Origin: Caldilineaceae bacterium
Lineage (GTDB): Bacteria > Chloroflexota > Anaerolineae > Caldilineales > Caldilineaceae
Direction: 5' to 3'
DNA: 64,000 bases
Assembly (NCBI GenBank): GCA_965200385.1
Contig: OZ241342.1
Location: 2,979,880-3,043,879 of the forward strand
Shown here: one piece after another, positions 3,753 through 42,094 of the stretch
Layout: the number at the start of each line of letters is the position of its first letter
Position numbering within the stretch: position 1 is the stretch's first letter
The notes under the pieces: model-generated
Databases searched by the model: none
Told to the model about the DNA's origin: nothing
What the model saw: only the letters and a program-made list of their open reading frames with translations
Translations under genes and position numbers: made by a program

Positions 3753-3936
3753 GCAGGGGCGTCCGTTAACAGGGTGGAAGCCAGCGCTCACCCTGTATCA
3801 TGTCCGGGTGGCACCAATAGGCTATATTATAGGAGACTGGACAGAGAAGCAACACACCTGAAGGCAAAACTGGCATGTTTCCATCAGCCTGTACAGGCAA
3901 TCCCGCTGTGCAGCCCCACGCGTATCCCAGAACCTG

Positions 3937-4587
3937 ATGCGCCTGGCAGGATTGCTCTTCGGTCTCTATCTGGGTCTGCGGCTCCACTGGTTCCAACAGC
4001 CGCGGCCCTTTCCCCGGCAACTGGCCGCGCTGCTGGACGTCACGGCCCGGATGCAGTACCTGGATCCCGAGAGCCTGGTGGAACTCTTTGGCATCGTCCC
4101 GGGCATGACCGTACTGGAGCTGGGTTGTGGCACCGGTGCCATGACGGAGCCCCTGGCCCGGCAACTCCAGGGCTCCGGCCAGATCCTGGTGCTTGACATT
4201 CAGTCCGCCTTCGTGGAGCATGCCCGTCACCGCATTGCGGCGGCCGGCCTGGAAGAGCAGGTGCACTTTTACCTGTCGGATCCCCAGTCAGCGCCCATAG
4301 GCCCACATACGACGGATCTGCTGGTCCTGGGCTCCGTATTGGGGGAAATTCCCGATCTGCATACCTGCCTGACGCGCCTGTTTGAAATCGCCAAGCCGGA
4401 CAGCCGGCTCGTGGTGTACGACGAAGTGCTGAATCCGGCTGCCATGTCTCCGGCCCGGACGCGCATGCACCTGCATGCCGCCGGTTTCCGTTTCGGAGGC
4501 CAAATCCGCCAACTGACCCACTACGTGGCCATGTACTACAAGGATGAAGTCGCCTTCAATCCGGATCAGGTCATCGGCCTGTCATGA
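3937..4587 (+). CDS. Class I SAM-dependent methyltransferase
   Basis: Motif I VLELGCGTGAMT followed by VLDIQ acidic loop. N-terminal hydrophobic segment. Confidence 0.7.
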   Translation: MRLAGLLFGLYLGLRLHWFQQPRPFPRQLAALLDVTARMQYLDPESLVELFGIVPGMTVLELGCGTGAMTEPLARQLQGSGQILVLDIQSAFVEHARHRIAAAGLEEQVHFYLSDPQSAPIGPHTTDLLVLGSVLGEIPDLHTCLTRLFEIAKPDSRLVVYDEVLNPAAMSPARTRMHLHAAGFRFGGQIRQLTHYVAMYYKDEVAFNPDQVIGLS

Positions 4588-5699
4588 ACACCGTTCAGTC
4601 CGCGGCTGCCTGCCCTGCCGACCCCTTCCATCTGACGGGACAGGACCTACCGTATCGCACGCCGGACCTGCCGGGCACAGGCGGTCAAATCCGGGTATAT
4701 CCCCATGATTTCCGGGTCGTCGAAATTCCGGCCTATCAACCGGCGGGTACAGGCTGCCACCTGTACCTGACGTTGAGTCGGGAAGGACTGACCACGCCCG
4801 ACGTCGTGAAAATTCTGAGCCGGCACCTGGGTGTACCTCCGGCGGCCATCGGCTACGCCGGTCTCAAGGACAAGCACGCGCACACCACCCAGACCTTCAG
4901 CGTCCTGTGTGCAGATCGCGATCCCACCGCGGGTGTGGATCTGCAGGCTTGCCTGGAAGCCGACACCCCTTTTCAGGTGCACGCCATCAACTGGCACCGC
5001 AACAAGCTCCGGGCTGGCCACCTGTACGGCAATGCCTTTGAAATCCTGATCCGGCACCCGGTGTGCTCCCTGGCTACCGCCGAGGACCGGGCCCAAGCCA
5101 TTGCCACCCGTCTGCGCCGGCAGGGCCTGGCCAACTTTTTCGGCTCCCAGCGCTTTGGCCATGAAGGCCGCAACGTCCAGCAGGGCTGGCGCATTGTGCG
5201 CGAGGGCTGGCGCGAGCGGCGCCGCTGGCTGCACAAGCTGTTCGTCTCGGCCTACCAAAGCTATCTTTGCAACCAGTACCTGGCTCTGCGCCAGGCAGAA
5301 AACGGCCTGGACAACATGGTCCGGGGTGACGTGGCCCGCAAGCAGACGACAGGGGGCATGTTTGTCGTATCCGATCCGCAGCAGGACACCAAACGCCTGC
5401 AAGCAGGTGAAATCAGCTTTACGGCGCCCATGTTTGGACATAAGATGTGGACAGCCGAACAGGATGCGCAGGACTGGGAAACCCGCATTCTGGCGCAGGC
5501 CGGCCTGGAGCAGCATGACTGGAAACGGGATCGCATTGCCGGCACCCGGCGTACCGGGTTGCTGCGCGTACCGGATCTGGTCGTAACCCGCAGGCCGGAT
5601 GGCATCTGCCTGACTTTTTCCCTGCCCAAGGGCAGTTTTGCGACGACTCTGCTCCGCGAGATTATGAAGCCCCCGGGCAGGCCCTTCCCCCGTGCATAG
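4584..5699 (+). CDS. truD: tRNA pseudouridine(13) synthase TruD
   Basis: GLKDKHAHTTQ catalytic-Asp motif and TruD-like length. ATGA overlap with the upstream gene. Confidence 0.85.
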   Translation: MNTVQSAAACPADPFHLTGQDLPYRTPDLPGTGGQIRVYPHDFRVVEIPAYQPAGTGCHLYLTLSREGLTTPDVVKILSRHLGVPPAAIGYAGLKDKHAHTTQTFSVLCADRDPTAGVDLQACLEADTPFQVHAINWHRNKLRAGHLYGNAFEILIRHPVCSLATAEDRAQAIATRLRRQGLANFFGSQRFGHEGRNVQQGWRIVREGWRERRRWLHKLFVSAYQSYLCNQYLALRQAENGLDNMVRGDVARKQTTGGMFVVSDPQQDTKRLQAGEISFTAPMFGHKMWTAEQDAQDWETRILAQAGLEQHDWKRDRIAGTRRTGLLRVPDLVVTRRPDGICLTFSLPKGSFATTLLREIMKPPGRPFPRA

Positions 5700-5708
5700 G
5701 AAACGACC

Positions 5709-6374
5709 ATGGAAATTCCCGTTTTTCCCCTCAACACTGTCCTGTTTCCCGGTATGATCCTGCCCCTGCACATCTTTGAGGAGCGCTACAAGATCATGAT
5801 CAACATGTGCCTGGCGGATCAGAAGCCGTTTGGCGTGGTCCTGATCCGGGAAGGGGAAGAAGTCGGCACCATGGCCACTCCCCATCGCGTAGGCACCATG
5901 GCCGCCATCCGCAGTGCGGATCAGCTGGAAGACGAACGACTCAATATCGTTACGGTCGGCCTCAGCCGCTTTCGCATTCAGGAGCTCCTGACCACCCGCG
6001 CCTATCCTGCCGCCCGGATTGCCGATTACCCCATCCGGGTGGAAGACCAGACACGTTCCGAACAGCTGGCAGCGCGTGTGCGGCCCGCCTTTCTGGAATA
6101 TGTCGACCTGCTGGAAAAGGGCGCCAACCTCAAGCTCAAGATCAACGAAGTGCCCGAGGATCCCGAGACGCTGGCCGCCCTGATCGCCATTGCCATGCAG
6201 ATCGAACTGCGGGACAAACAGACGGTGATCGAGCGTACTACGGTCGAAGATATGCTGATCACCGAATTCAATTTCCTGTCCCGGGAAAAGATGATCCTGC
6301 AGTACGGCATCGACACCATGGACCAGCAGGATCGGTACCAGTTCGGCCCCACAGGGCAGATGTTTCTCAACTGA
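5709..6374 (+). CDS. LON N-terminal (substrate-binding) domain protein, no ATPase or protease part
   Basis: FPLNTVLFPGMILPLHIFEERYK is the typical Lon N-domain start. Only 221 aa. Confidence 0.75.
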   Translation: MEIPVFPLNTVLFPGMILPLHIFEERYKIMINMCLADQKPFGVVLIREGEEVGTMATPHRVGTMAAIRSADQLEDERLNIVTVGLSRFRIQELLTTRAYPAARIADYPIRVEDQTRSEQLAARVRPAFLEYVDLLEKGANLKLKINEVPEDPETLAALIAIAMQIELRDKQTVIERTTVEDMLITEFNFLSREKMILQYGIDTMDQQDRYQFGPTGQMFLN

Positions 6375-9779: not shown

Positions 9780-10136
9780 ATGCCCCGATCCCGACCCAAG
9801 GTGTACGCGCACCGACGGCACAAGAAAGTCCTGAAAGCCACCAAAGGCCAGTTTGGCGGCCGTTCCCGTCTGTACAAGACGGCCCATGAAGCCCAACTGC
9901 ATTCCCTGCACTACGCGTACCGGGATCGTCGGGCACGCAAGCGGGATCTGCGCAAGCTCTGGATCATGCGGATCAATGCCGCTGCCCGCTCCCATGGCCT
10001 GTCCTACAGCCGTTTCATGTACGGTCTCAAGGAAGCCGAAGTCGCCATTGACCGCAAGGCGCTGGCCGACATCGCCGTACACGATCGCCCGGGCTTTGCC
10101 CACCTGGTGGATCTGGCCAAAGCCCAGCTGGCCTGA
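9780..10136 (+). CDS. rplT: 50S ribosomal protein L20
   Basis: [26 protein letters not shown]...[11 protein letters not shown] signature. Confidence 0.95.
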
Positions 10137-10180
10137 TCCCGGCCACATCCATATTTCGTACCCTGCCGGAACCGCCCGCG

Positions 10181-11104
10181 CTAGCGCGGCGGTTCCGGCC
10201 GAAATCCGACTCCCAGCGTGTCCCGGTTTTCCTGTACCCAGACCGACAGCCGGGTCGTGCCCGCAGGGGTTTCGTCGGATCCCAGCAAATCGGATGCCAG
10301 CCCCTCGAGTTCGTCGCGCGACAGAATGGTGTCCCGCAATACCTGACCGGCCATTTGGTACAGGATCAGGCACAAGGGTATGGGCAACGGCACCACGCGT
10401 GGCCTGCGCCCGGTCAGCCACCTGCCTATCTGCTGTACCAGCTCGTCGAACAAAAACTGTTCCGGGCCGCAGGCATCCCGCACCACGTCATCCTGCACGT
10501 CTCCGTACCTGCACATCACGGCCGCCATGTCCTTGACGTGAATGGGTCGAATCCGATAGCCCAGCGGACCGGGCAGAAAAAAGGCCGGAAACCGTCGGGC
10601 GGCAAACGCAATGTTGTTGATCAGAACGTCATGGGCACCAAAGAAACAGGAAGGACGCAAAATAGCGTATGACAGACCGCTGCGCTGGATGTAGGCTTCC
10701 ACCTCGGCCTTGCCCTGAAAGTAGGGCAAGGCACTCGCGGGATGGGGCTGGGTAATGCTGACATGTACCAGCCGTGACACCTGGGCGGCCACGGCGGCGT
10801 CGATCAGGTACCGGGAATTCTCTACGGCTGTGGCATGTGAGGTCCACGGCCCGCGATGCCCGATGGGCGGACGCGTGTGCCGCACCCAATAGGTGTTGTA
10901 CAGCGTATCCACGCCTGCCAGAGCCCGGGTCAGGCCAGTCAGTTCCCAGGTCCAGGGAGAGGCAGTGACCGCACCGCGGAACGGATCGTCAGCTGGAACC
11001 GCACGGGAGGTCAGGGTGCGCACCGTATGACCTCGTGCCAGCAACTCGTGGGTAATGTGGCGACCCAGGTAAGACCAGGCACCCGTAACCATTGCAACTG
11101 CCAT
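10181..11104 (-). CDS. NAD(P)-binding SDR-family protein (NmrA / atypical epimerase-like)
   Basis: N-terminal Rossmann VTGAWSYLGRHITHELLARGHTV. 307 aa. Confidence 0.65.
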   Translation of the reverse strand: MAVAMVTGAWSYLGRHITHELLARGHTVRTLTSRAVPADDPFRGAVTASPWTWELTGLTRALAGVDTLYNTYWVRHTRPPIGHRGPWTSHATAVENSRYLIDAAVAAQVSRLVHVSITQPHPASALPYFQGKAEVEAYIQRSGLSYAILRPSCFFGAHDVLINNIAFAARRFPAFFLPGPLGYRIRPIHVKDMAAVMCRYGDVQDDVVRDACGPEQFLFDELVQQIGRWLTGRRPRVVPLPIPLCLILYQMAGQVLRDTILSRDELEGLASDLLGSDETPAGTTRLSVWVQENRDTLGVGFRPEPPR

Positions 11105-11240: not shown

Positions 11241-11521
11241 TGCATGACCGACCGCCAAGAACAACGTGCGCCCGGTGCGTTTCCGGATCGACATCAGGTT
11301 TTGTCCCTGCCGCCGGCCCTGCAGAACCCACCGCCGGCGTGGGGATCTGAACAGTCTATGTCCACTGCAGGTACGCATGCAGCATGCCGATGGGACTGTC
11401 CCGCACCCGGCATCCCGGAAGCGGTTGGCACAGCAGCATTATCTGCAGGACATGGGACCAGGGGCCTTTACCCTACTCTTATCGCCCCTGGAGTCAGCAA
11501 CAGACCCCAATTGTATGTTGC

Positions 11522-11550
11522 TTGGCAATCACCTGCATCTTTGCTACGAT
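11522..11550 (+). promoter_or_regulatory. Putative sigma-70-type promoter of the sugar ABC operon
   Basis: TTGGCA, 17-nt spacer, TACGAT, about 100 nt upstream of the binding-protein start. Confidence 0.3.
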
Positions 11551-11649
11551 GAGGCACCATTGCGCTGTCACCGTTTGTTCATGGTCTTTCCCCTGCGTGG
11601 GGAAGTCTTGGGGACAGCCATGTTTTGCATGCCCTGCAAGGAGTTTGTC

Positions 11650-13002
11650 ATGTCTCAATTCCTTACCCGTCGCCGGTTTCTGCAAGCCACTGGTACCTTC
11701 GCCGCTACCGCTGCCCTGGCAGCCTGTACCATAGCCGCCCCTGCCGCGGAAGAAGGCGCCATGACGGAAGAACCCATTGAGCTGGTGTTTGTCACGACTT
11801 CTTCCAGCGACTCCAGTGCTGCCCTGTACGATCCCATCAAACAGCAATTCCGCGAGGAAAACCCCAACATCGACATCCGCTTCCTGGGTGTCGTGGGCGC
11901 CGGGGGCTGGGGCGGCTATTTTGACAAGCTGAGCGTTATGATAGCCGGGGGCGAAACGGTGGACATGGGCAAGATACCCACCGAAGGCGGACGGCTGGCC
12001 GTGGCCCGCGGTCTGGTTCGGCCCCTGGACGAATTCATCGAAGCCACGCCCGAACTGGACGCGTATTTCGAGGATGTCTCCCCCGAACTGGCTACGGTGT
12101 TCACGTATGGCGGCAAAACCTACGGCCTGCCCTATGATTACAACAACATGATGATCTGGTTCAATGTCAACCGGCTGGCGGAAGAAGGCCTGGAAATGCC
12201 GCCGGAAGACTGGACGTTCAGCGACTTCCGGGAATATGCCTTGGCGCTGACCAAACGGGACGGCGCGAATACCACACATTATGGCTTCAGTTTCTGGTAC
12301 AGTCCGTTCGGTCTTTGTCCGTGGCTCTTCAACAATGGTCTGGCCGGCATGATGGACGGGGACGATCTGTCCATTCCGCTGCAGACCGAACCGGCGTACG
12401 CCGAAGTCGTGCAGCTGCTTTACGACATGATGTATGAAGACGAAACGGTGCCCAAGCCCGATGCCCAAACAACCGGCAATTTCGAAGCGGGCACCCAGGC
12501 CATGATGATGGCTGGCCGCTGGCCCCTGAGCGGTTTTCTGCAGAATGACTTCCGGGACTGGGACGTCCAGTATTGGCCCCAGGGCACCCGGCGCGTGACA
12601 GAAGTCGGCTGTGGTTCCTGGCCCATCTTCAAGGGCTCCCAGCATCCGGAAGCAGCCTGGAAGTTTGAAGTGAAACTGCTGGAGCGCGACTCTATTGCCT
12701 ACTTCGTTTCCACAGGCGCCAACATTCCCTCCCTGCGCAGCGTCGGCTATTCGGAAGATTTCCTGGCGCTGCACGACCGGAGCGGACGGCTCTGGTACGA
12801 GTCGATTGACCGTGAGGACATTCCGGTCATGTCAGTGACGTCTCCTCCGGAATTCAGTGAAATGGAACAAATCAGTGCACGCTACATGTCCCAGATCTTC
12901 GCCAATGAGATGAACATCAGTGAAGCCCTGGGCCTGATCCAGCAGGAACTGACCGACATGGTGGGACGCCGCCCGGCCGAGTGGGCAGCCCAGTTTGCAT
13001 AA
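11650..13002 (+). CDS. ABC transporter extracellular solute-binding lipoprotein (family 1, carbohydrate type)
   Basis: Tat motif TRRRFLQ plus lipobox LAAC, then typical CUT1 binding-protein sequence. Start moved to ATG 11650. Confidence 0.85.
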   Translation: MSQFLTRRRFLQATGTFAATAALAACTIAAPAAEEGAMTEEPIELVFVTTSSSDSSAALYDPIKQQFREENPNIDIRFLGVVGAGGWGGYFDKLSVMIAGGETVDMGKIPTEGGRLAVARGLVRPLDEFIEATPELDAYFEDVSPELATVFTYGGKTYGLPYDYNNMMIWFNVNRLAEEGLEMPPEDWTFSDFREYALALTKRDGANTTHYGFSFWYSPFGLCPWLFNNGLAGMMDGDDLSIPLQTEPAYAEVVQLLYDMMYEDETVPKPDAQTTGNFEAGTQAMMMAGRWPLSGFLQNDFRDWDVQYWPQGTRRVTEVGCGSWPIFKGSQHPEAAWKFEVKLLERDSIAYFVSTGANIPSLRSVGYSEDFLALHDRSGRLWYESIDREDIPVMSVTSPPEFSEMEQISARYMSQIFANEMNISEALGLIQQELTDMVGRRPAEWAAQFA

Positions 13003-18056: not shown

Positions 18057-18248
18057 CGGGATACGTCCAGGCAGGGACATACACTCCGGCCCCAAGGATG
18101 ACAAGAGACTCATGCCGCGTGCCGGGATGACACACCACAGCGACTGTAATACGATTTGGGCACTGACAGTCATGGGCTTGTACCCAACAACCAATTCCAA
18201 GATGGAAGATCTGTGGGGATCTATATATATTTGCCGATAGCAACTGTA

Positions 18249-19585
18249 GGGGGTTATATATGTACCCACACCACGCAGTGTAGACAGGAGAGGGCAAGCT
18301 AGAATAGGGTATGAACATAGAAGAGACAATGGTTTGCCGGGGCGTTACCTTACGGGTGCGACCGGGGTCCAAAAACAAGCACGACAAAGATGATGCGGAG
18401 CGGCGGGGCTTGTCGCAAGGTGTGGAACGAAGTATTGGCAATCTGTGAAAAGCGGTGGCAAGACTACAAGGCCGGTAAAGGCGATAAATCATCGGTTTCG
18501 TTCTTCTCTCTATGTAAGTTGTACGTACAAGTCAAGCAGGAATTGCCCTGGTTGGGCGCGTTGCCATCGAACACTGTGCGCTATACCGTAAAGCATCTGG
18601 CAGAAGCCTATAAGCGGTTCTTTGATGGCGCAGGGCGGCCGGTCTGGAAGCGGAAATGCAAGGACACGCCAAGGTTTACTGTGCCCGGTAATAGTAAGAT
18701 TAAGGGCAAGAAGATCTACATCCCCAAGCTTGGGTGGGTGAAGCTGACAGGCAAGAATCCGTACGCCGATTGTAAGCCCAAGCAGGCCACGTTCAAGTAT
18801 GAGGCGGGTAACTGGGTATGTGTCCATCCTGTACGAAGAGCCAGCCCCGCGCCCGGATAGACCTGCCAAGCCTATTAATCCTGTAGGCATCGCTCGGAAC
18901 GTGGGGCAAGTGGCATTAAGTACTGGTGATATGTACGAACTGCCGACGCTATTGGAGCTTGACGCCAAACTGCGCAGGTTGCAAAAGAAGTTAGCTCGTC
19001 AAGAGTTCAAGAGTAACGGGTGGCAATATACCAAACTACGCATACAAAAGGTGTACAGGGAGATACGGAATGTCATAAAGAACTGGTGTCACCAGGCCAG
19101 TCGCACCATTGCTGATATACACGATCTAGTTATCTTTGAAGACCTGAACATTCAGGGTATGACCAAGAGTGCCCGTGGCTCTTTGGAAAACCCCGGCAAG
19201 AATGTGGCTCAGAAAAGAGGATTGAATCGTGCTATCTTGCGCAGCGGGTGGGGGCGACTGGAACGGTATATGGCTTACAAGACTTATACAGAAAAGTATA
19301 GATCCGAAGTACACATCACAGCGTTGTCATAACTGCGGGGTAGTACGTAAAGCTAACCGCAAGTCCCAGTCTGTTTATCACTGCAGTAAATGTGATGTGG
19401 AAAAGAATGCCGACGTGAACGCGGCTTTAAACATACGGGACAAGTGGTTGGATAAGAGTATGGCGTCCGGGGACGGCGCAGCTGCAGGTGGAGATTGCAA
19501 CATTAGTTGGTCTGCGAAGCCTGAAAATGTATATGGAAAAGCATCACAGCCTGCAGGCGTGGTGTGAGTACGTATATAGTCCCCC
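18249..19585 (+). mobile_element. TnpB insertion element, copy A (decayed), with terminal inverted repeats and an 8-bp flanking direct repeat
   Basis: Left end GGGGGTTATATATGTACCCACACC. Right end GGTGTGAGTACGTATATAGTCCCCC. CAACTGTA at 18241-18248 and again at 19585-19592. Collinear nucleotide homology to 40706-42038. Confidence 0.8.
18311..19567 (+). pseudogene. tnpB: tnpB pseudogene (three frameshifts, RuvC-I Asp replaced by Ala)
   Basis: Four ORF pieces in frames 2/0/1/2. Extra bases relative to copy B near 18386-18388, 18814-18816 and 19297. GIARNVG here versus GIDRNVG in copy B. Confidence 0.85.
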
Positions 19586-19819
19586 AACTGTATTGGTCTA
19601 ACACTGAAATAGTGGTTCAAGGCTGGAAAACCCGGTTGCCTTGGGGAGCATGCCACTGCACGCAAGTCGTGCAACGGATTTCGGATAGGGTCGACAATCG
19701 GTGCGGATCGGCCTGTTGACAGCACAAGGCCGACCAGGGTGTGGTATCCAGATCGGCCGTGCCATGTGATGTTGTTGCCCAAGGGCAGGTCCCCTCAGTC
19801 CAAGGGGCAAAGTCCCATA

Positions 19820-21034
19820 CTAGCTGACGTAACCCCTCTCGCCATGTTCGGAACTGTCCAGACCTATCGATTCATCGTCGGCGGACACCCGTACACCTAC
19901 TACTAGATCCACAACCTTGAAAATAATCCAGGTCATGGCGAAGGCGTATATCCAGGTGACCACAGTGGCAATGAGCTGGGACATGAACTGGCCGGGATTG
20001 CCATTCAGCAGACCCCCGCTGGCCAGGGTGGTGGAAGCGAAGATGCCCACGGCCAGAGCCCCCCACGTACCGGACATGCCGTGAATGGCCCAAACGTCCA
20101 GTGACTCGTCGATCTTGAAGTGGATCCGCAGTTCCGCCGCAAAGAAGGACACGATGGAAGCCACAATGCCGATGATGAGAGCGGGTATAACCTCGACGAA
20201 ACCGGCGCCCGGTGTAATGGCTACCAGTCCGGCCACGGCGCCCGAGGCTGCACCCAGAGCACTGGGTTTCTTGACAACCAGCCAGGCCAGAATCATCCAG
20301 GTCACCGCACCGGCGGCAGCGGCGGTGTTGGTGGTGACCAGAGCGTTGACTGCAATTTCGTCCGCAGCCAGGGCCGAGCCGCCGTTGAAGCCAAACCAGC
20401 CAAACCAGAGCATGCCGGTGCCCAGCAGAACGAACATCAGACTGTGTGGTTCCATGGGCACGCGTCCGAAGCCTGTCCGGCGACCGATAATCAGAGCTGC
20501 GGCCAGGGCACCTATGCCGGATGACATGTGGACTACGTTACCACCGGCAAAGTCCAGGGGAGACGGGCTGAGGACCGTGTGCAGCCAGCCACCGCCCCAT
20601 ACCCAATGGGCGATGGGCGAGTAAACCAGCGTGGACCAGAATACGACGAACACGAGATAGGCCTTGAACTTGATGCGTTCCGCAAAGGCGCCTGCCAGCA
20701 GGGCCGGGGTAATGGCTGCGAACATGCCCTGGAACATCATGAACAACAGGGCCGGTATATCCATACCGTCCAGGGGTTCCAAACCCACACCCCGCAGGCC
20801 CAGATGCCGCAAATCCCCGATAATCCCCCCGAGTGTGCTGGGACCGAAAGCCAGAGAATAGCCCCACAGGATCCAGACCAGACCGACGACGCCCATGCAA
20901 ATGAAACAATGCATGACTGTGGCCAGGACATTCTTGACGCGGACAAGACCGCCGTAGAAAAGCCCGAGTCCCGGAATCATCAGCATAACCAAGGCTGTTG
21001 AAACCATTATCCAGGCCGTGTTCGCACCGTTCAT
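19820..21034 (-). CDS. amtB: Ammonium transporter
   Basis: GLFYGGLVRVKN, DFAGGNVVHMSSG, HGMSGTWGALAVG. Start set at MNGANTAW (21034). Confidence 0.9.
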   Translation of the reverse strand: MNGANTAWIMVSTALVMLMIPGLGLFYGGLVRVKNVLATVMHCFICMGVVGLVWILWGYSLAFGPSTLGGIIGDLRHLGLRGVGLEPLDGMDIPALLFMMFQGMFAAITPALLAGAFAERIKFKAYLVFVVFWSTLVYSPIAHWVWGGGWLHTVLSPSPLDFAGGNVVHMSSGIGALAAALIIGRRTGFGRVPMEPHSLMFVLLGTGMLWFGWFGFNGGSALAADEIAVNALVTTNTAAAAGAVTWMILAWLVVKKPSALGAASGAVAGLVAITPGAGFVEVIPALIIGIVASIVSFFAAELRIHFKIDESLDVWAIHGMSGTWGALAVGIFASTTLASGGLLNGNPGQFMSQLIATVVTWIYAFAMTWIIFKVVDLVVGVRVSADDESIGLDSSEHGERGYVS

Positions 21035-32614: not shown

Positions 32615-32764
32615 GTGTGTTGCTCCTGAATGTGTGCTGAGCGCGACGCGCACGTTGAGTCCATGCGGCTCGCTTACGCTTGCCTCAGACTGAAATTGAT
32701 ATGGGTTATATACGAGCAGACACCGCTGGCAGAACTGGTGCCGGGAAGCTGTGCATGGTTCCTG

Positions 32765-33300
32765 TCATCCCCCCGGGGTCAGCATGGTATAGGTGAGACG
32801 CTTGCCGATAGCCCCCTGCACCAGGAGCCGCAACTGCTTTTGTGTGTCCAGCGGCCGCACGTTGTGGCGCCCTGTGCATGCATTGATGTAGCGGTGCCGA
32901 CGCTTGAGACTCATGTGGTGGTACACACCCATGTAACCCCGTTTGCGCAGGGCCCAGAACGACTCCAGACCGTTGCTGTGGGCCTGCCCCCGAACACATT
33001 CGCCTACGCTGTGCCGCACCACCGCGCGCGTCCGCTGCACTTGGCGGTAGGCCGTGGCGTCGTCCGTGTACACCAGGGCCTCGCGTGCCGTGCGCACATA
33101 TACGAACTGGCGCAGCATCCGTCCTGGCCACCACCGCGGCGTCTATCCGGTGGGTCGGTCGGTCCTTGACCCCGGCCACGGCCGTAACCAGCGCAGGGGC
33201 TTGTCCCGCACTGCCGGCGCATAGACTCCACGCACACCCCGGAACCTCGTGCCGTCCAGTTTCGGGTTCCAGGCCACCGGCACGAACAGGTCGATGCTGG
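32765..33300 (-). pseudogene. IS1595-family (ISXO2-like) DDE transposase, frameshifted C-terminal two thirds
   Basis: ALVYTDDATAYRQ...VRHSVGECVRGQAHSNGLESFWALRKRGYMGVYHHMSLKRRHRYINACTGRHNVR matches the DDE_Tnp_IS1595 pattern. Upstream parts (IDLFVPVA..., VKDRPTHRIDAAVVARTD) lie in two other frames. Confidence 0.7.
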
Positions 33301-33499
33301 CCGCGAACAATCTGGCGCCGCGCGCATGTCCAGACCGGTGTCCGCCTGCATCAGGATGCCCAGCCGCTGCAGAGTTGCCGGCGGGTTGTGCGCTGTTCTG
33401 CGTTGCCCGCAAGACGCACGGGAATGTCTGTGGCACACCCGGCACGCGCCGGACTATGCGTTCCAAGGCGGGCTCGCGGTCAAGCACAGGAAATATCCG

Positions 33500-33640
33500 A
33501 AGATACACAACCTGCACAAGCTGGCTCCGCTGATGGACGGCTTGATGACCTTGGCCCTGGAACCCGGACGCAACCGGAACGTCACACCTTTGTACGTTTT
33601 CCTGTTCTTGCTCGGTGATACCCTGGTATACCCTTGCTTG
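33500..33640 (-). pseudogene. tnpB: tnpB 5' remnant
   Basis: GVTFRLRPGSRAKVIKPSISGASLCRLC parallels GITLRVRPGSRTKHNKMMRIAGACRKVW of copy B. Nucleotide-level similarity by eye. No start codon retained. Confidence 0.5.
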
Positions 33641-33730
33641 CCGTCTACACCCCATCCCCTGCCTCGCGGGTGAATTCGTATGTAATTCCCTTCGGATAGT
33701 TTGCCAGGTGGGAGAAAGTCCCAACAGCAG

Positions 33731-40058: not shown

Positions 40059-40625
40059 ATGACCGACACACCAGCTCCCGGAACCACGTCTCCCGTTCGT
40101 CTCGCGGTTTCTTCCAGCCTGCTGATTGCAGGCGGCGTGCTGGTCTTGATCCTGTTTGTCATCGGTCTGCTCACCTGGCGCGTCCTGCGTGACAACGTAT
40201 CAGTCCTGCAGCCGCACGAACCGGCTCCGCCCTTCACCTTGGAAACTTTCAATGGGGACAGCGTGTCCCTTGACGATTTGCGGGGTCAGGGCGTGGTACT
40301 GAATTTCTGGGCCAGCTGGTGCAACCCGTGCCGCGAAGAGGCAGAACTGCTGGAAGCGGCTTGGCAGGCCGAACAGGATCAGGGGGTGATGTTCGTGGGT
40401 GTAGCCTATCTGGATCAGGGACCTGCCGCCCGGCGTTACCTGGACGAGTTCAACATCTCCTATCCCAACGGCCGGGACAAGGGTGGAGACATCGCCCGCC
40501 GCTATGCGGTCACCGGAGTGCCTGTAACCTATTTCATCGACCCCAACGGCCAGATCCAGGGCCACTTCACAGGGCCGCTGGCCCCTGACAGGCTCCATGC
40601 GTTCCTGGCCGTGATTCGGCCCTAG
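40059..40625 (+). CDS. TlpA/ResA/CcmG-type thiol:disulfide oxidoreductase
   Basis: N-terminal TM anchor and thioredoxin motif [13 protein letters not shown]. Confidence 0.85.
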
Positions 40626-40767
40626 GCCTGTCTGCAAACTCAAAAGAAGCGAGTCGACCCACTGTCTTGAGAACGTAATTGTTTGAACAAGCAAGCAATT
40701 AAGAAGGGGACTATATACGTACCCACACCGCGCAGTGTGGACAGGAGAGGGCAAGCTAGAATAGGGC

Positions 40768-42021
40768 ATGAACATAGAAGAGATTATGGTGCACCGGGGT
40801 ATCACCTTGCGGGTGCGCCCAGGCAGTAGAACCAAGCACAACAAGATGATGCGCATTGCCGGGGCCTGCCGCAAGGTTTGGAATGAGGGACTGGAAATCT
40901 GCGAGAGGCAATATCAAGAATTCAAGGCCGGTAAAGGCGATAAACCTAACGTTACACACTTCGGACTGAACAATCTGTATGTACAAATCAAGCAGGAGTT
41001 ACCCTGGTTGGGTGAGCTGCCGGGCCATACTGTGCGCTACACCATGAAACACTTGTCGGAAGCTTATAAGCGGTTCTTTGATGGCGCAGGGCGGCTGGTC
41101 TGGAAGCGCAAATTCAAGGACGCCCCAGGGTTTACTGTGCCCGGTAATATTAAGATTAAAGGCAAGAAAATCTACATCCCCATGCTTGGGTGGGTGAAGT
41201 TGACAGGCAAGAATCCGTACGCCGGTTGTAAGCCCAAGCAGGCCACATTCAAGTATGAGGCAGGCAACTGGTATGTGTCCATCCTGTATGAAGTGCCCGA
41301 CACACGGCCGATCAGACTGGGTAAACCTGTTAATCCTGTAGGCATTGATCGCAACGTAGGACAGGTTACGCTAAGTACAGGCGATATGTATGAACTGCCA
41401 AAGTTGTTGGAACTAGACGCCAAACTGCGCAGGTTGCAAAAGAAGTTGGCCCGCCAACAGTACAAGAGCAACGGTTGGCAACATACCAAGCTACGTATCC
41501 AGAAGATATACAGGGAGATACGCAATGTCACAAAGGACTGGTGCCACCAGACCAGTCGTACCATCGCTGACATACATGATCGAGTCATCTTTGAGGACCT
41601 GAACATTCAGGGTATGACCAAGAGTGCCCGTGGCTCCAAGGATAAACCCGGTAAGAGTGTAGCTCAGAAAAGAGGCTTGAATCGTGCTATCTTGCGCAGT
41701 GATTGGGGACGGCTGGAACGGTATATGAGTTACAAGACTTATACAGAAAAGATAGATCCCAAGTACACGTCACAAAAGTGTCATAACTGTGGGGTAGTAC
41801 GTAAAGCTAACCGCAAGTCCCAGTCTGTTTACCATTGCAGTAAATGTGATGTTGAAAAGAACGCTGACGTGAATGCGGCTTTAAACATCCGGGACAAATG
41901 GTTAGGTAAGAACATGGCGTCCGGGGACGGCGCATCTGCGGGTGGAGATTGCAACACTAGTTGGTCTGCGAAACCTGAAAATGTATCCGGTGTAGCATTA
42001 CGCCCTGCGGGTGTGGTGTGA
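40768..42021 (+). CDS. tnpB: TnpB RNA-guided endonuclease (IS200/IS605-family OrfB)
   Basis: RuvC-I GIDRNVG, RuvC-II VIFEDLNIQGM, zinc ribbon CHNCG...CSKC, RuvC-III NADVNAALNI. N-terminal RVRPGS...ACRKVWN. Confidence 0.9.
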   Translation: MNIEEIMVHRGITLRVRPGSRTKHNKMMRIAGACRKVWNEGLEICERQYQEFKAGKGDKPNVTHFGLNNLYVQIKQELPWLGELPGHTVRYTMKHLSEAYKRFFDGAGRLVWKRKFKDAPGFTVPGNIKIKGKKIYIPMLGWVKLTGKNPYAGCKPKQATFKYEAGNWYVSILYEVPDTRPIRLGKPVNPVGIDRNVGQVTLSTGDMYELPKLLELDAKLRRLQKKLARQQYKSNGWQHTKLRIQKIYREIRNVTKDWCHQTSRTIADIHDRVIFEDLNIQGMTKSARGSKDKPGKSVAQKRGLNRAILRSDWGRLERYMSYKTYTEKIDPKYTSQKCHNCGVVRKANRKSQSVYHCSKCDVEKNADVNAALNIRDKWLGKNMASGDGASAGGDCNTSWSAKPENVSGVALRPAGVV

Positions 42022-42038
42022 AAACGTATATAGTCCCC
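41860..42038 (+). ncRNA. Predicted omega/right-end RNA scaffold of TnpB (guide would continue into 42039 onward)
   Basis: By analogy with characterised TnpB loci, the RNA overlaps the tnpB 3' end and right end. This stretch is highly conserved with copy A and has a hairpin with compensatory changes (42001-42013 vs 19547-19561). Confidence 0.35.
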
Positions 42039-42094
42039 TACGCTTCGAACAGACATTGTGACTTTTCAAACAGGCCTGGACAACCGCACCTGAC

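Follow-up and report, generated by a model that had tools for sequence, protein, structure and literature searches.

Within a ccm operon of the window (the whole 64,000-nucleotide stretch of Caldilineaceae DNA that was analysed) lies copy B, a 1333-bp element that we read, with a probability of about 0.78, as a non-autonomous, IS1595-ended element carrying tnpB and an omegaRNA and mobilised in trans. The ends of such elements and their 8-bp duplications are of the IS1595 type and not of the IS200/IS605 type, so that they most likely move with the transposase of another element. An IS1595-family transposase supplied in trans would bind the ends and move the element. The features discussed below are collected in Table 1.

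Table 1. Positions in the window of copy B, its parts, its flanking genes and related elements.
Feature	Position	Strand	Basis or remark
Copy A, paralogous element, ~83% identical to copy B	18249..19584	+	tnpB broken, three 1-base indels
Decayed IS1595-family element with cognate ends	32703..33690	-	GGGAATTACATACGAATTCAC at 33690; GGGTTATATACGAGCAGACACC at 32703
C-terminal part of DDE_Tnp_IS1595 transposase	ORF 32765-33118	-	tblastn, Pfam PF12762
TlpA/ResA-like thioredoxin gene	40059..40625	+	Upstream of insertion; Pfam
Outer inverted repeat, left arm AGGCCTGTCTGCAAACTCAAAA	40624..40645	+	Begins in tlpA stop codon
Copy B, TnpB-only element, 1333 bp	40706..42038	+	IS1595-type inverted ends
Left terminal inverted repeat GGGGACTATATACGTACCCACACC	40706..40729	+	Repeat search; matches IS1595-element ends
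tnpB, intact, 417 aa, RuvC D194/E276/D367 and C4 zinc finger	40768..42021	+	
Predicted omegaRNA (reRNA) scaffold	41917..42038	+	Overlaps tnpB 3' end, through right inverted repeat
omegaRNA helices	41917-20/41930-33, 41939-43/41973-77, 41952-55/41960-63	+	Covariation
Right terminal inverted repeat	42015..42038	-	Reverse complement of left end; repeat search
Putative omegaRNA guide segment	42039..42058	+	Inferred from TnpB-system analogy and -9 G position
Outer inverted repeat, right arm, including TTCAAACA	42056..42077	-	Repeat search
ccmF, intact, 658 aa	42095..44071	+	Pfam; 91% identical to nearest relative

An intact TnpB gene inserted in a ccm operon

The original prediction described copy B as an intact TnpB-only unit, and the protein analyses agree. 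The 417-aa product matches Pfam OrfB_IS605, Cas12f1-like_TNB and HTH_OrfB_IS605, exceeds the NCBIfam guided_TnpB threshold (212.7 bits, cutoff 100), and resembles the ISDra2 TnpB structures 8h1j and 8exa along its full length (E 2e-19). Its RuvC-like D-E-D triad and the zinc finger cysteines C338, C341, C357 and C360 are invariant in a 26-sequence TnpB alignment, and with about 400 aa the protein has the make-up of a TnpB/OMEGA nuclease. As judged from these residues the copy B TnpB is catalytically intact, with RNA-guided, TAM-dependent cleavage as its putative activity. The protein falls under the cutoffs of the two NCBIfam models for TnpBs of known partners, IS200_TnpB (162 vs. 425 bits) and IS607_TnpB (99.5 vs. 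350 bits). Exact look-ups of the window TnpB and of proteins P0001 and P0006 retrieved no record, and a cluster look-up retrieved no names. The tnpB gene is the only gene of copy B; there is no DDE transposase gene with an N-terminal zinc ribbon inside it, and as a result the element can be at most a non-autonomous IS1595 derivative. Its GC content, 0.45-0.53, is lower than the window mean (0.61).

The placement within a ccm operon, also part of the original prediction, is borne out by the TlpA/ResA-like and CcmF products of the flanking genes and by three related genomes (L005-L007), in which the spacer between tlpA and ccmF is 13 bp long; the DNA between the genes flanking copy B is therefore an insertion. 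Copy B does not fill this insertion but is nested in a 1454-bp insert bounded by a 22-nt inverted repeat, whose arms match at 18/22 positions (82%; 2 matches vs. 0.29 expected) and whose sequence is missing from the relatives. The inverted 8-mer TGTTTGAA/TTCAAACA that had been noticed in the flanks is indeed present, but it is only a part of this longer repeat (40624-40645/42056-42077).

This arrangement makes it possible, at somewhat under even odds, that copy B did not enter the operon directly but came in as cargo of a second small element delimited by the outer repeat (40624-42077), or jumped into that element, which would explain the missing duplication described below. The outer repeat stands exactly at the borders of the DNA absent from the relatives, and the TnpB element does not account for about 120 bp of additional low-GC flank. 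Against this, neither the outer repeat nor the additional flank recurs in the window or the fetched loci, and there is no clear duplication around the outer unit apart from an ambiguous palindromic AGGCCTG.

Terminal repeats, target duplications and the link to IS1595

The ends of copy B are 24 nt long and match at 21/24 positions, the first 15 perfectly. A 15-mer of this end occurs three times in the window where 0.01 occurrences are expected, and the end repeat is also present in copy A and in three fetched paralogs (L001, L002 and L004). Homology of copy B to copy A and to these paralogs begins and ends at 40706/42038, that is, exactly at the repeats, which upholds the claim that they are real terminal inverted repeats. 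The multi-copy alignment that the original prediction had set as its refuting test likewise gave ends that terminate at the inverted repeats, with no extension beyond them. The tnpB stop codon (42019-42021) falls within the right repeat of copy B, in which positions 16-18 depart from the family consensus (TTT).

An alignment-based scan of genome contigs, used where a query-only peptide scan had found nothing, retrieved 26 TnpB relatives with paired GGGRMTTATATAC ends, at 30-41% identity and mostly from MAGs. Sixteen of these are flanked by 8/8 duplications and four more by duplications matching at 7/8 positions, while mismatched flank pairs, used as a control, gave no perfect 8-bp duplication in 650. 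All elements with GGGRMTTATATAC-type ends belong to one TnpB clade, in which the 24-nt inverted repeats are kept throughout and the elements measure about 1.25-1.45 kb. The other TnpBs retrieved lack such ends, and five of the loci (L050, L057, L062, L065 and L066) form a separate TnpB clade with a different inverted repeat. The host MAGs are mostly from taxa that we take to be sponge symbionts, and one 3.8-Mb genome holds about 50 diverging TnpB paralogs. Closer to copy B, copy A, L001 and L004 each lie between perfect 8-bp duplications, i.e., 3/5 family copies (2/3 of the fetched paralogs). The original prediction overlooked the perfect duplication around copy A, CAACTGTA, at 18241-18248 and 19585-19592; it was right that copy B has none (ATTAAGAA vs. 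TACGCTTC). The architecture of inverted ends with an 8-bp duplication is a family trait and not peculiar to copy B, and it is the missing duplication that is peculiar to copy B and not to the element type.

These results bear directly on the possibility that copy B is an ordinary IS200/IS605 element of the IS1341 type, moved as ssDNA by a Y1 TnpA encoded elsewhere, with an inverted repeat that is incidental or part of subterminal hairpins. In favour of this are the homology of the protein to the TnpB of ISDra2, its OrfB_IS605 match, and a short palindrome (CCACAC..GTGTGG) next to the left end of copy B, on the inner side. However, this palindrome is lost in copies A, L002 and L004. Conserved hairpins of the IS605 type were not found in the clade, nor was a fixed 4-5-nt 5' target motif, a single conserved G being all that is kept at that position, in line with the earlier view that the architecture is unlike that of IS200/IS605. 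The 24-nt repeats are symmetric and held in common with DDE elements, the IS200_TnpB score is far under its cutoff, and most copies of the clade have 8-bp duplications, which IS200/IS605 does not make (PMC13565253). The explanation by a Y1 TnpA is largely refuted, and we leave it hardly any probability.

No tnpA lies near copy B, as had been reported, and the element has no room for a Y1 TnpA. When ORFs of at least 150 aa were compared among the 3-kb flanks of 80 loci, short-chain dehydrogenases, which are not transposases, were the one family to recur; with this minimum length a Y1 TnpA would be missed in the flanks, and the elements leave no room for one. The report that no tnpA is nearby nevertheless needs one addition, namely that a transposase remnant does exist: 7 kb upstream of copy B is a decayed DDE element of the IS1595 family. 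Compared with an intact IS1595 transposase, the decayed one is 48% identical over 114 aa (tblastn, E 5e-26), and it matches Pfam PF12762 (E 2e-13); its score of 49 bits against NCBIfam transpos_IS1595 is under the cutoff of 75 because the sequence is a fragment. The first ~200 nt of this element (32703-33690) align to the left end of the TnpB elements, so that the decayed copy, which has the closest ends, is chimeric with a TnpB-element left end. A second decayed copy with ends of the same kind (GGGAATTACATACG.../GGGGATTACATACGAG...) is found at L002:10036, on a contig that also carries an identical TnpB paralog.

The likeness extends to transposase-encoding members of the family. One locus (L089) combines ends of the TnpB-element type and an 8/8 duplication (TAAGAAAA) with the domains Zn_ribbon_IS1595 and DDE_Tnp_IS1595, and in the genes of intact IS1595 transposases of 314-315 aa, GGGAATTATATACGAAACTAGACAA precedes the start codon by about 83 bp. 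The left repeat of copy B matches IS1595-element ends at 16-17/24 positions and at 12 of the first 14, and in some TnpB elements and IS1595 elements the first 15 nt (GGGAATTATATACGA) are identical. Inverted repeats of the IS1595 type are therefore present in copy B itself, and the 8-bp duplication of that family in its relatives and L089 but not in copy B. Members of the ISNwi1 subgroup of IS1595 make 8-bp duplications and have the ends ggnnatTAT, and some of them carry passenger genes; on this end consensus of ISfinder, we tentatively assign the ends of the TnpB elements to the subgroup.

It is unlikely, though less so than movement by a Y1 TnpA, that these are cut-and-paste or replicative elements that depend for their movement on a different DDE transposase or on a so far unknown activity of TnpB itself, their likeness to IS1595 ends being convergent. 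Such a partner would fit the fact that the window and the fetched loci contain decayed copies only and no intact IS1595 transposase with these exact ends in the same genome. An element with both tnpB and a DDE gene, which would have favoured the IS1595 reading, was not found either. An ISAzo13-type DDE gene also lies 44 bp from the L004 element; it was considered as the partner and rejected, being next to one copy only and outside the duplication, and ISAzo13 elements are not known to duplicate 8 bp. Against convergence stand the identical first 15 nt, the duplication length common to both element types, and the chimeric decayed copy in the window.

Copy B itself looks like an old copy that is probably immobile, since it has no duplication, no G at position -9 (see below) and three substitutions in its right end, and is nested in the 1454-bp insert. 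With the duplication and the G both missing, its own arrival by the IS1595 route is presumptive. One could also see in it a domesticated, immobile TnpB put to use by its host, perhaps in RNA-guided regulation inside the ccm operon, with which it is co-oriented. The intact ORF would suit this role, tnpB being broken in copy A and many other paralogs, as would the mutated right end and missing target duplication. We nevertheless consider domestication very improbable: the three nearest relatives do not have the insertion, the gene belongs to the set of ~50 diverging paralogs, no conserved gene partner was seen among flanking ORFs of at least 150 aa, and the catalytic triad is intact, unlike that of the inactivated TnpB derivatives reported with tyrosine recombinases.

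A structured RNA at the tnpB 3' end and a TAM-like base

In a 28-sequence alignment of the tnpB 3' region, three helices were identified in which 97.3% of cells are paired. Their covariation score is 0.66, compared with 0.21 in shuffles, none of 500 shuffles reaches that value, and control helices slid along the alignment pair at 43% or less. A structured RNA is thus conserved by covariation at the tnpB 3' end, and the omegaRNA scaffold predicted from it, as in TnpB/OMEGA systems, overlaps the 3' end of the gene and ends at the element boundary. A fourth helix, in which the alignment paired a GTATAC motif with the right end, was not retained, since its register varies among loci; a test of matched against mismatched duplexes took its place, and in this test the segment after helix 2 pairs better with its cognate right end than with non-cognate ones (p 1e-6). 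By minimum free energy, the 3' region of copy B alone is not exceptional (z = -1.08), and the omegaRNA region had no Rfam match at the gathering threshold or at E<=1.

The guide of this omegaRNA would be the flank just outside the right end, i.e., the duplication plus the DNA downstream of it. A second match to the putative copy B guide was not found in the window. Just 5' of the left duplication, at position -9, 21/23 elements have a G (binomial p 5e-9). The signal is specific to orientation, with a C at +9 in only 8/23 (Fisher p 1.5e-4), and the left ends of transposase-encoding IS1595 elements have a G at -9 in 2/5, a control that consists of five oriented ends only. The exceptions with an A at -9, L012 and L014, make up one sub-clade with L010; copy B does not have the G. 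From its position, the -9 G looks like a TAM, although it could also be a target preference of a particular transposase lineage.

If it is a TAM, the TnpB-omegaRNA complex would read a short motif ending in G 5' of the duplicated 8 bp, and by analogy with IS605-type TnpB it would cut unoccupied or vacated sites, after which recombination would restore the element. We offer as a tentative proposal, to which we give rather less than an even chance, that the TnpB-omegaRNA unit of this clade is the sole cargo of IS1595 (Merlin-related) DDE ends and that the nuclease shapes where the elements persist, survival being favoured at sites with a TAM ending in G (or, for one sub-clade, in A) just 5' of the duplicated 8 bp, so that the guide, made up of the duplication and the right flank, can target the empty allele. 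If true, this would place RNA-guided homing or retention alongside a prokaryotic DDE cut-and-paste transposon and would be a bacterial counterpart of the Fanzor-bearing TIR transposons.

Comparison with known TnpB carriers and IS1595 elements

Cas12 descends from TnpB, which is itself a compact enzyme for genome editing. What is known in detail of the biology of TnpB comes from IS605 and IS607 partners alone, in which the target motif of the transposase is also the TAM. Like the IS1341 group of IS200/IS605, the present elements code for TnpB only, the protein has ~400 aa, and a guide RNA, predicted in the present case, overlaps the 3' end. They differ in having inverted repeats and 8-bp duplications; in that group the ends are asymmetric hairpins, the target is not duplicated and its motif is fixed. 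With the IS1595 family, they share ends beginning GGGRMTTATATAC that match those of transposase-encoding members, 8-bp AT-rich target duplications and their size. In contrast to that family, they have no DDE gene and carry only tnpB and the omegaRNA, their right end also belongs to the predicted RNA scaffold, and an orientation-specific G stands beside the duplication.

TnpBs associated with DDE transposases have already been surveyed. In the parts of the survey by Altae-Tran et al. 2023 in PNAS (PMC10691335) that bear on this case, six DDE-associated TnpB branches, DDE-1 to DDE-6, are described, which like the present clade are prokaryotic TnpBs in elements with inverted terminal repeats and have the TnpB 3' end near the transposon end; solo TnpBs with the ends of transposase-bearing elements are there proposed to be mobilised in trans. 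The DDE families named with TnpB are IS630 in that paper, and ISL2, IS630 and IS1031 in a review (PMC13565253). In the main texts of both, as far as compared, IS1595 is not mentioned; this clade may be one of DDE-1 to DDE-6. Searches on IS1595 with TnpB, on ISNwi1, on ISPna2/ISSod11 and on TnpB with sponge symbionts found nothing relevant, and an IS1595 case was not found in the literature searched.

The same review attributes the rarity of DDE partnerships to the break that cut-and-paste excision makes in any case (PMC13565253). The clade is a natural test of this argument, i.e., of whether an RNA-guided nuclease benefits a DDE transposon and how, for it has inserted independently dozens of times and kept the duplications intact, its predicted guide RNA, which covariation supports, takes in the end that the transposase would bind, and one base of the flank is orientation-specific. 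It also supplies TnpBs with a possibly minimal TAM. The Fanzor elements of eukaryotes are similar in that non-autonomous TIR/TSD elements have a TnpB homologue as their only gene, and the guide-RNA scaffold of Fanzor-carrying cut-and-paste TIR transposons includes the TIR (Bao and Jurka 2013; Yoon et al. 2023, PMC10711439). The present case differs in being prokaryotic and in having a compact TnpB, and the position of the -9 G suggests that, unlike in Fanzor, the guide would begin at the duplication rather than after it.

The tnpB gene, its ends and its relatives

The TnpB-only element between the tlpA-like thioredoxin gene and ccmF (copy B, 40706-42038) is a 1333-bp block of low GC content (0.45-0.53 versus a window mean of 0.61). 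Its product carries the Pfam domains OrfB_IS605, Cas12f1-like_TNB, and HTH_OrfB_IS605, aligns over its full length with the solved ISDra2 TnpB (8h1j, 8exa; E 2e-19), and scores 212.7 bits against the NCBIfam model for RNA-guided TnpB, above its cutoff of 100; it falls below the cutoffs of the IS200/IS605-specific (162/425) and IS607-specific (99.5/350) models. The RuvC residues D194, E276, and D367 and four zinc-finger cysteines are invariant across an alignment of 26 homologues. The inverted repeats originally reported for this copy were borne out, with the first 15 positions perfect and 21 of 24 matching overall. The stop codon of tnpB falls within the right repeat, and the window contains the terminal 15-mer three times where 0.01 occurrences are expected, the third being the right end of a paralog, copy A.

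Copy A (18249-19584) is ~83% identical to copy B, and its tnpB is broken by three 1-base indels. When the two copies are aligned to locate their termini, the similarity starts and stops exactly at the inverted repeats. A perfect 8-bp direct repeat, CAACTGTA, lies on either side of copy A (18241-18248 and 19585-19592); the original prediction had overlooked it, having been correct that copy B has no target duplication (ATTAAGAA versus TACGCTTC). Among the fetched paralogs, the L001 and L004 elements have CAACCAAT and AATTATAT, respectively, on both flanks, and the flanks of the L002 element differ (AATTACAG versus AAATTGTG). These three contigs carry proteins identical to ones on a 3.79-Mb contig which, in the protein database, holds ~50 TnpB clusters with 60-87% identity to copy B, many of them truncated; beyond these clusters, the nearest relatives in that database are only ~44% identical. 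That database contains neither the TnpB nor the CcmF of the window, and its CcmF matches include none from the 3.79-Mb contig, so the window probably derives from the genome with that contig. The copies observed, 75-87% identical and mostly broken, point to an old burst. L004 also has an ISAzo13-type DDE transposase gene, beginning 44 bp past the right duplication of the TnpB element, and, 8 kb downstream, another truncated TnpB fragment (11297-12487 and 19334-20212).

Using the TnpB alignment to scan 185,579 species genomes, we recovered 80 loci. The closest matches (30-41% identical) come mostly from MAGs of Porisulfidus, Arenicellales, Paracoccaceae, and Caldilineaceae, which we take to be sponge-symbiont taxa. 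The named CcmF and TnpB matches indicate that the window probably comes from a Caldilineaceae-related Chloroflexota bacterium, and from the taxa concerned we infer a sponge association. The tnpB genes of these relatives are bracketed by 22-26-nt inverted repeats starting GGGRMTTATATAC, and the elements measure 1.25-1.46 kb around a tnpB of ~1.2 kb, leaving no room for a second gene. With element ends anchored on this motif, 8-bp duplications are perfect in 16 of 26 elements and match at 7/8 positions in 4 more, compared with 0 of 650 perfect matches when left and right flanks are mispaired; the duplications are AT-rich and vary in sequence by site. In a neighbour-joining tree, one TnpB clade holds all elements with GGGRMTTATATAC-type ends, the window family included, and the other retrieved TnpBs (actinomycetes and others, 30-35% identity) lack such ends. 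In a separate small clade (L050, L057, L062, L065, and L066), the inverted repeat is another one, GGSGCTTCAG...GTGTGGAA, and 8-bp duplications are present where scorable (L066 8/8, L050 7/8); this clade may represent a second, independent DDE-type partnership. Two Caldilineaceae MAG loci, L016 and L017, share a right TnpB-element junction (ATTCCAAA and AATCCAAA) and have different left ones; the right flank in L016 includes the reverse complement of its left-flank 8-mer, which suggests that an inversion between copies may have taken place.

IS1595-family transposases and shared ends

In ISfinder, the IS1595 family includes an ISNwi1 group, whose members have 8-bp duplications and the ends "ggnnatTAT". 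An exact-pattern scan of JGI metagenomes for a consensus end returned six contigs, among them L089, whose element contains a gene with Zn_ribbon_IS1595 and truncated DDE_Tnp_IS1595 domains; intact homologues of this transposase, 314-315 aa long, are common. In all fetched cases, representing four different insertion sites (L094-L112), GGGAATTATATACGAAACTAGACAA lies ~83 bp upstream of the transposase start codon (AGGAATT... in L094), and some TnpB-element ends (L022) are of this same GGGAATTATATACGAAACTAGACAA type, with the first 15 nt identical. Passenger genes sit beside the transposase gene in the IS1595-family elements with these ends, an N6 DNA methylase in L094-L112 and additionally a Methylase_S specificity subunit in L105; the L089 transposase is truncated.

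Searched by tblastn with an intact transposase, the window gave a match at 33115-32780 (E 5e-26; 48% identity over 114 aa), as did L002 at 10135-10927 (E between 1e-26 and 2e-28 by query protein). The decayed copy in L002 begins with GGGGATTACATACGAGTATACAC, and the ends of the decayed copies match those of the TnpB elements at 15-17 of 24 positions, with the inner ...ACAC motif in common. Over its first ~200 nt, the window remnant can be aligned to the TnpB elements, in their left end and N-terminal coding region (~70% across the best 40 nt). The remnant is thus a chimera, with the left part of a TnpB element and the right part of an IS1595 transposase within one pair of ends; it would be either a recombinant of both element types or the deletion relic of a composite. 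Taken together, the matching ends and the nearby decayed copies argue, at the level of sequence, that the ends of the TnpB elements are IS1595-family ends and that the same lineage hosted IS1595-family transposases. The window and the fetched paralog loci yielded decayed copies only and no intact cognate IS1595 transposase. At 10927-11239 of L002, the decayed IS1595-like copy has an internal duplication and runs into sequence resembling another, IS4/IS5-like, transposase.

The tlpA-ccmF insertion site

That copy B is an insertion is upheld by three Caldilineaceae-like genomes without it, in which only 13 bp separate the thioredoxin stop from the ccmF start (CcmF of related genomes is 91% and 85% identical to that of the window). 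The corresponding gap in the window is 1469 bp, made up of 80 bp, the 1333-bp element, and 56 bp. The extra ~120 bp around copy B are low in GC and have no second copy in the window or any fetched locus. An outer inverted repeat, likewise found nowhere else in the window or fetched loci, brackets copy B and the extra DNA exactly where the relatives have their 13-bp spacer. The inverted 8-mer originally described in the flanks of copy B is present, but as part of this longer repeat and not as a unit of its own. Three histories are conceivable for copy B: insertion into a small foreign element, transport together with one, or subsequent rearrangement. As copy B is co-oriented with the operon, no terminator-like site was predicted on the + strand at copy B, and ccmF is intact, a polar effect on ccmF is possible.

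Coordinates of the features discussed (window positions unless a locus is named)
Feature	Position	Strand	Details
tnpB ORF of copy B	40768-42021	+	417 codons, uninterrupted; ORF reading
Left inverted repeat of copy B	40706-40729		GGGGACTATATACGTACCCACACC; inverted copy at 42015-42038
RNA helices of copy B	41917-20/41930-33, 41939-43/41973-77, 41952-55/41960-63		RNAalifold prediction
Outer inverted repeat	40624-40645, partner 42056-42077		AGGCCTGTCTGCAAACTCAAAA; 22 nt, 82%, 18/22 matching
DDE_Tnp_IS1595 ORF	32765-33118	-	transposase C-terminus; domain match E 2e-13
Decayed IS1595-family unit	32703-33690	-	988 bp; bounded by GGGAATTACATACGAATTCAC (33690, -) and GGGTTATATACGAGCAGACACC (32703, +)
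L089 element	3898-5818 (L089)		1921 bp; ends GGGAATTATATACGTAACTTGAC / GGGAATTATATACGAAACTAGAC; perfect duplication TAAGAAAA

Predicted omegaRNA, flank base and known systems

In an alignment of 28 elements over their final ~150 nt, RNAalifold predicted three helices with compensatory changes in 10 of 13 pairs. Helix cells are paired in 97.3% of cases versus 71.9% in shuffles, the covariation score of 0.66 (0.21 in shuffles) was reached by 0 of 500, and moving the partners by 1-3 columns lowers the pairing to 29-43%. In copy B, the helices sit within the C-terminal tail of the ORF, which is poorly conserved, and an Rfam search of the RNA region gave no family match. The duplex between the stretch following helix 2 and its own right end is more stable than those with right ends of other loci (mean -8.3 versus -6.0 kcal/mol; Mann-Whitney p 1e-6), which suggests that the transposase-binding end doubles as part of the RNA scaffold; Fanzor reRNAs likewise have a scaffold that includes the transposon end (PMC10711439). 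The copy B duplex is weak (-3.8 kcal/mol), with TTT at positions 16-18 of the right end and GTATCC as the upstream motif.

Among 23 TnpB elements with intact or near-intact duplications (left flanks from L008-L074), the base directly 5' of the left duplication (-9, counted from the element end) is G in 21 (binomial p 5e-9 versus 32% G at neighbouring positions). At -10, A occurs just once among the 23, and the mirror position, +9, carries C in just 8 of them (Fisher p 1.5e-4). Since the two ends are near-identical, the transposase should act symmetrically, and a bias tied to tnpB orientation therefore points to the asymmetric cargo. In keeping with this, a small control of five oriented left ends from IS1595 elements that encode a transposase has G in only 2. 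The left G is kept despite a lost duplication in L002, L016, L018, L025, L039, and L049. Two exceptions with A, L012 and L014, group with L010 as one TnpB sub-clade, a pattern expected of a lineage-specific TAM; copy B also has A at -9 and no G. We infer that the guide would begin at the element boundary, that the protospacer would consist of the duplication together with the right flank, and that the TAM would end at -9.

IS200/IS605 and IS607 elements have neither inverted repeats nor target duplications (PMC13565253), unlike the copy B family with its inverted repeats and 8-bp duplications. Altae-Tran et al. 2023 (PMC10691335) describe six DDE-transposase-associated TnpB branches, all with inverted terminal repeats, and solo TnpBs that share the ends of transposase-bearing elements and are proposed to be mobilised in trans, so the general principle of TnpBs on DDE-type ends is already known. 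The DDE partner families named in excerpts of these two sources (PMC10691335, PMC13565253) are IS630, ISL2, and IS1031, with IS1595 not among them. The partnership with IS1595, the TnpB-only state across the clade, the RNA embedding the inverted repeat, and the orientation-specific flank base all appear to be new, and TnpB elements with IS1595-family ends should be of interest to OMEGA-system researchers.
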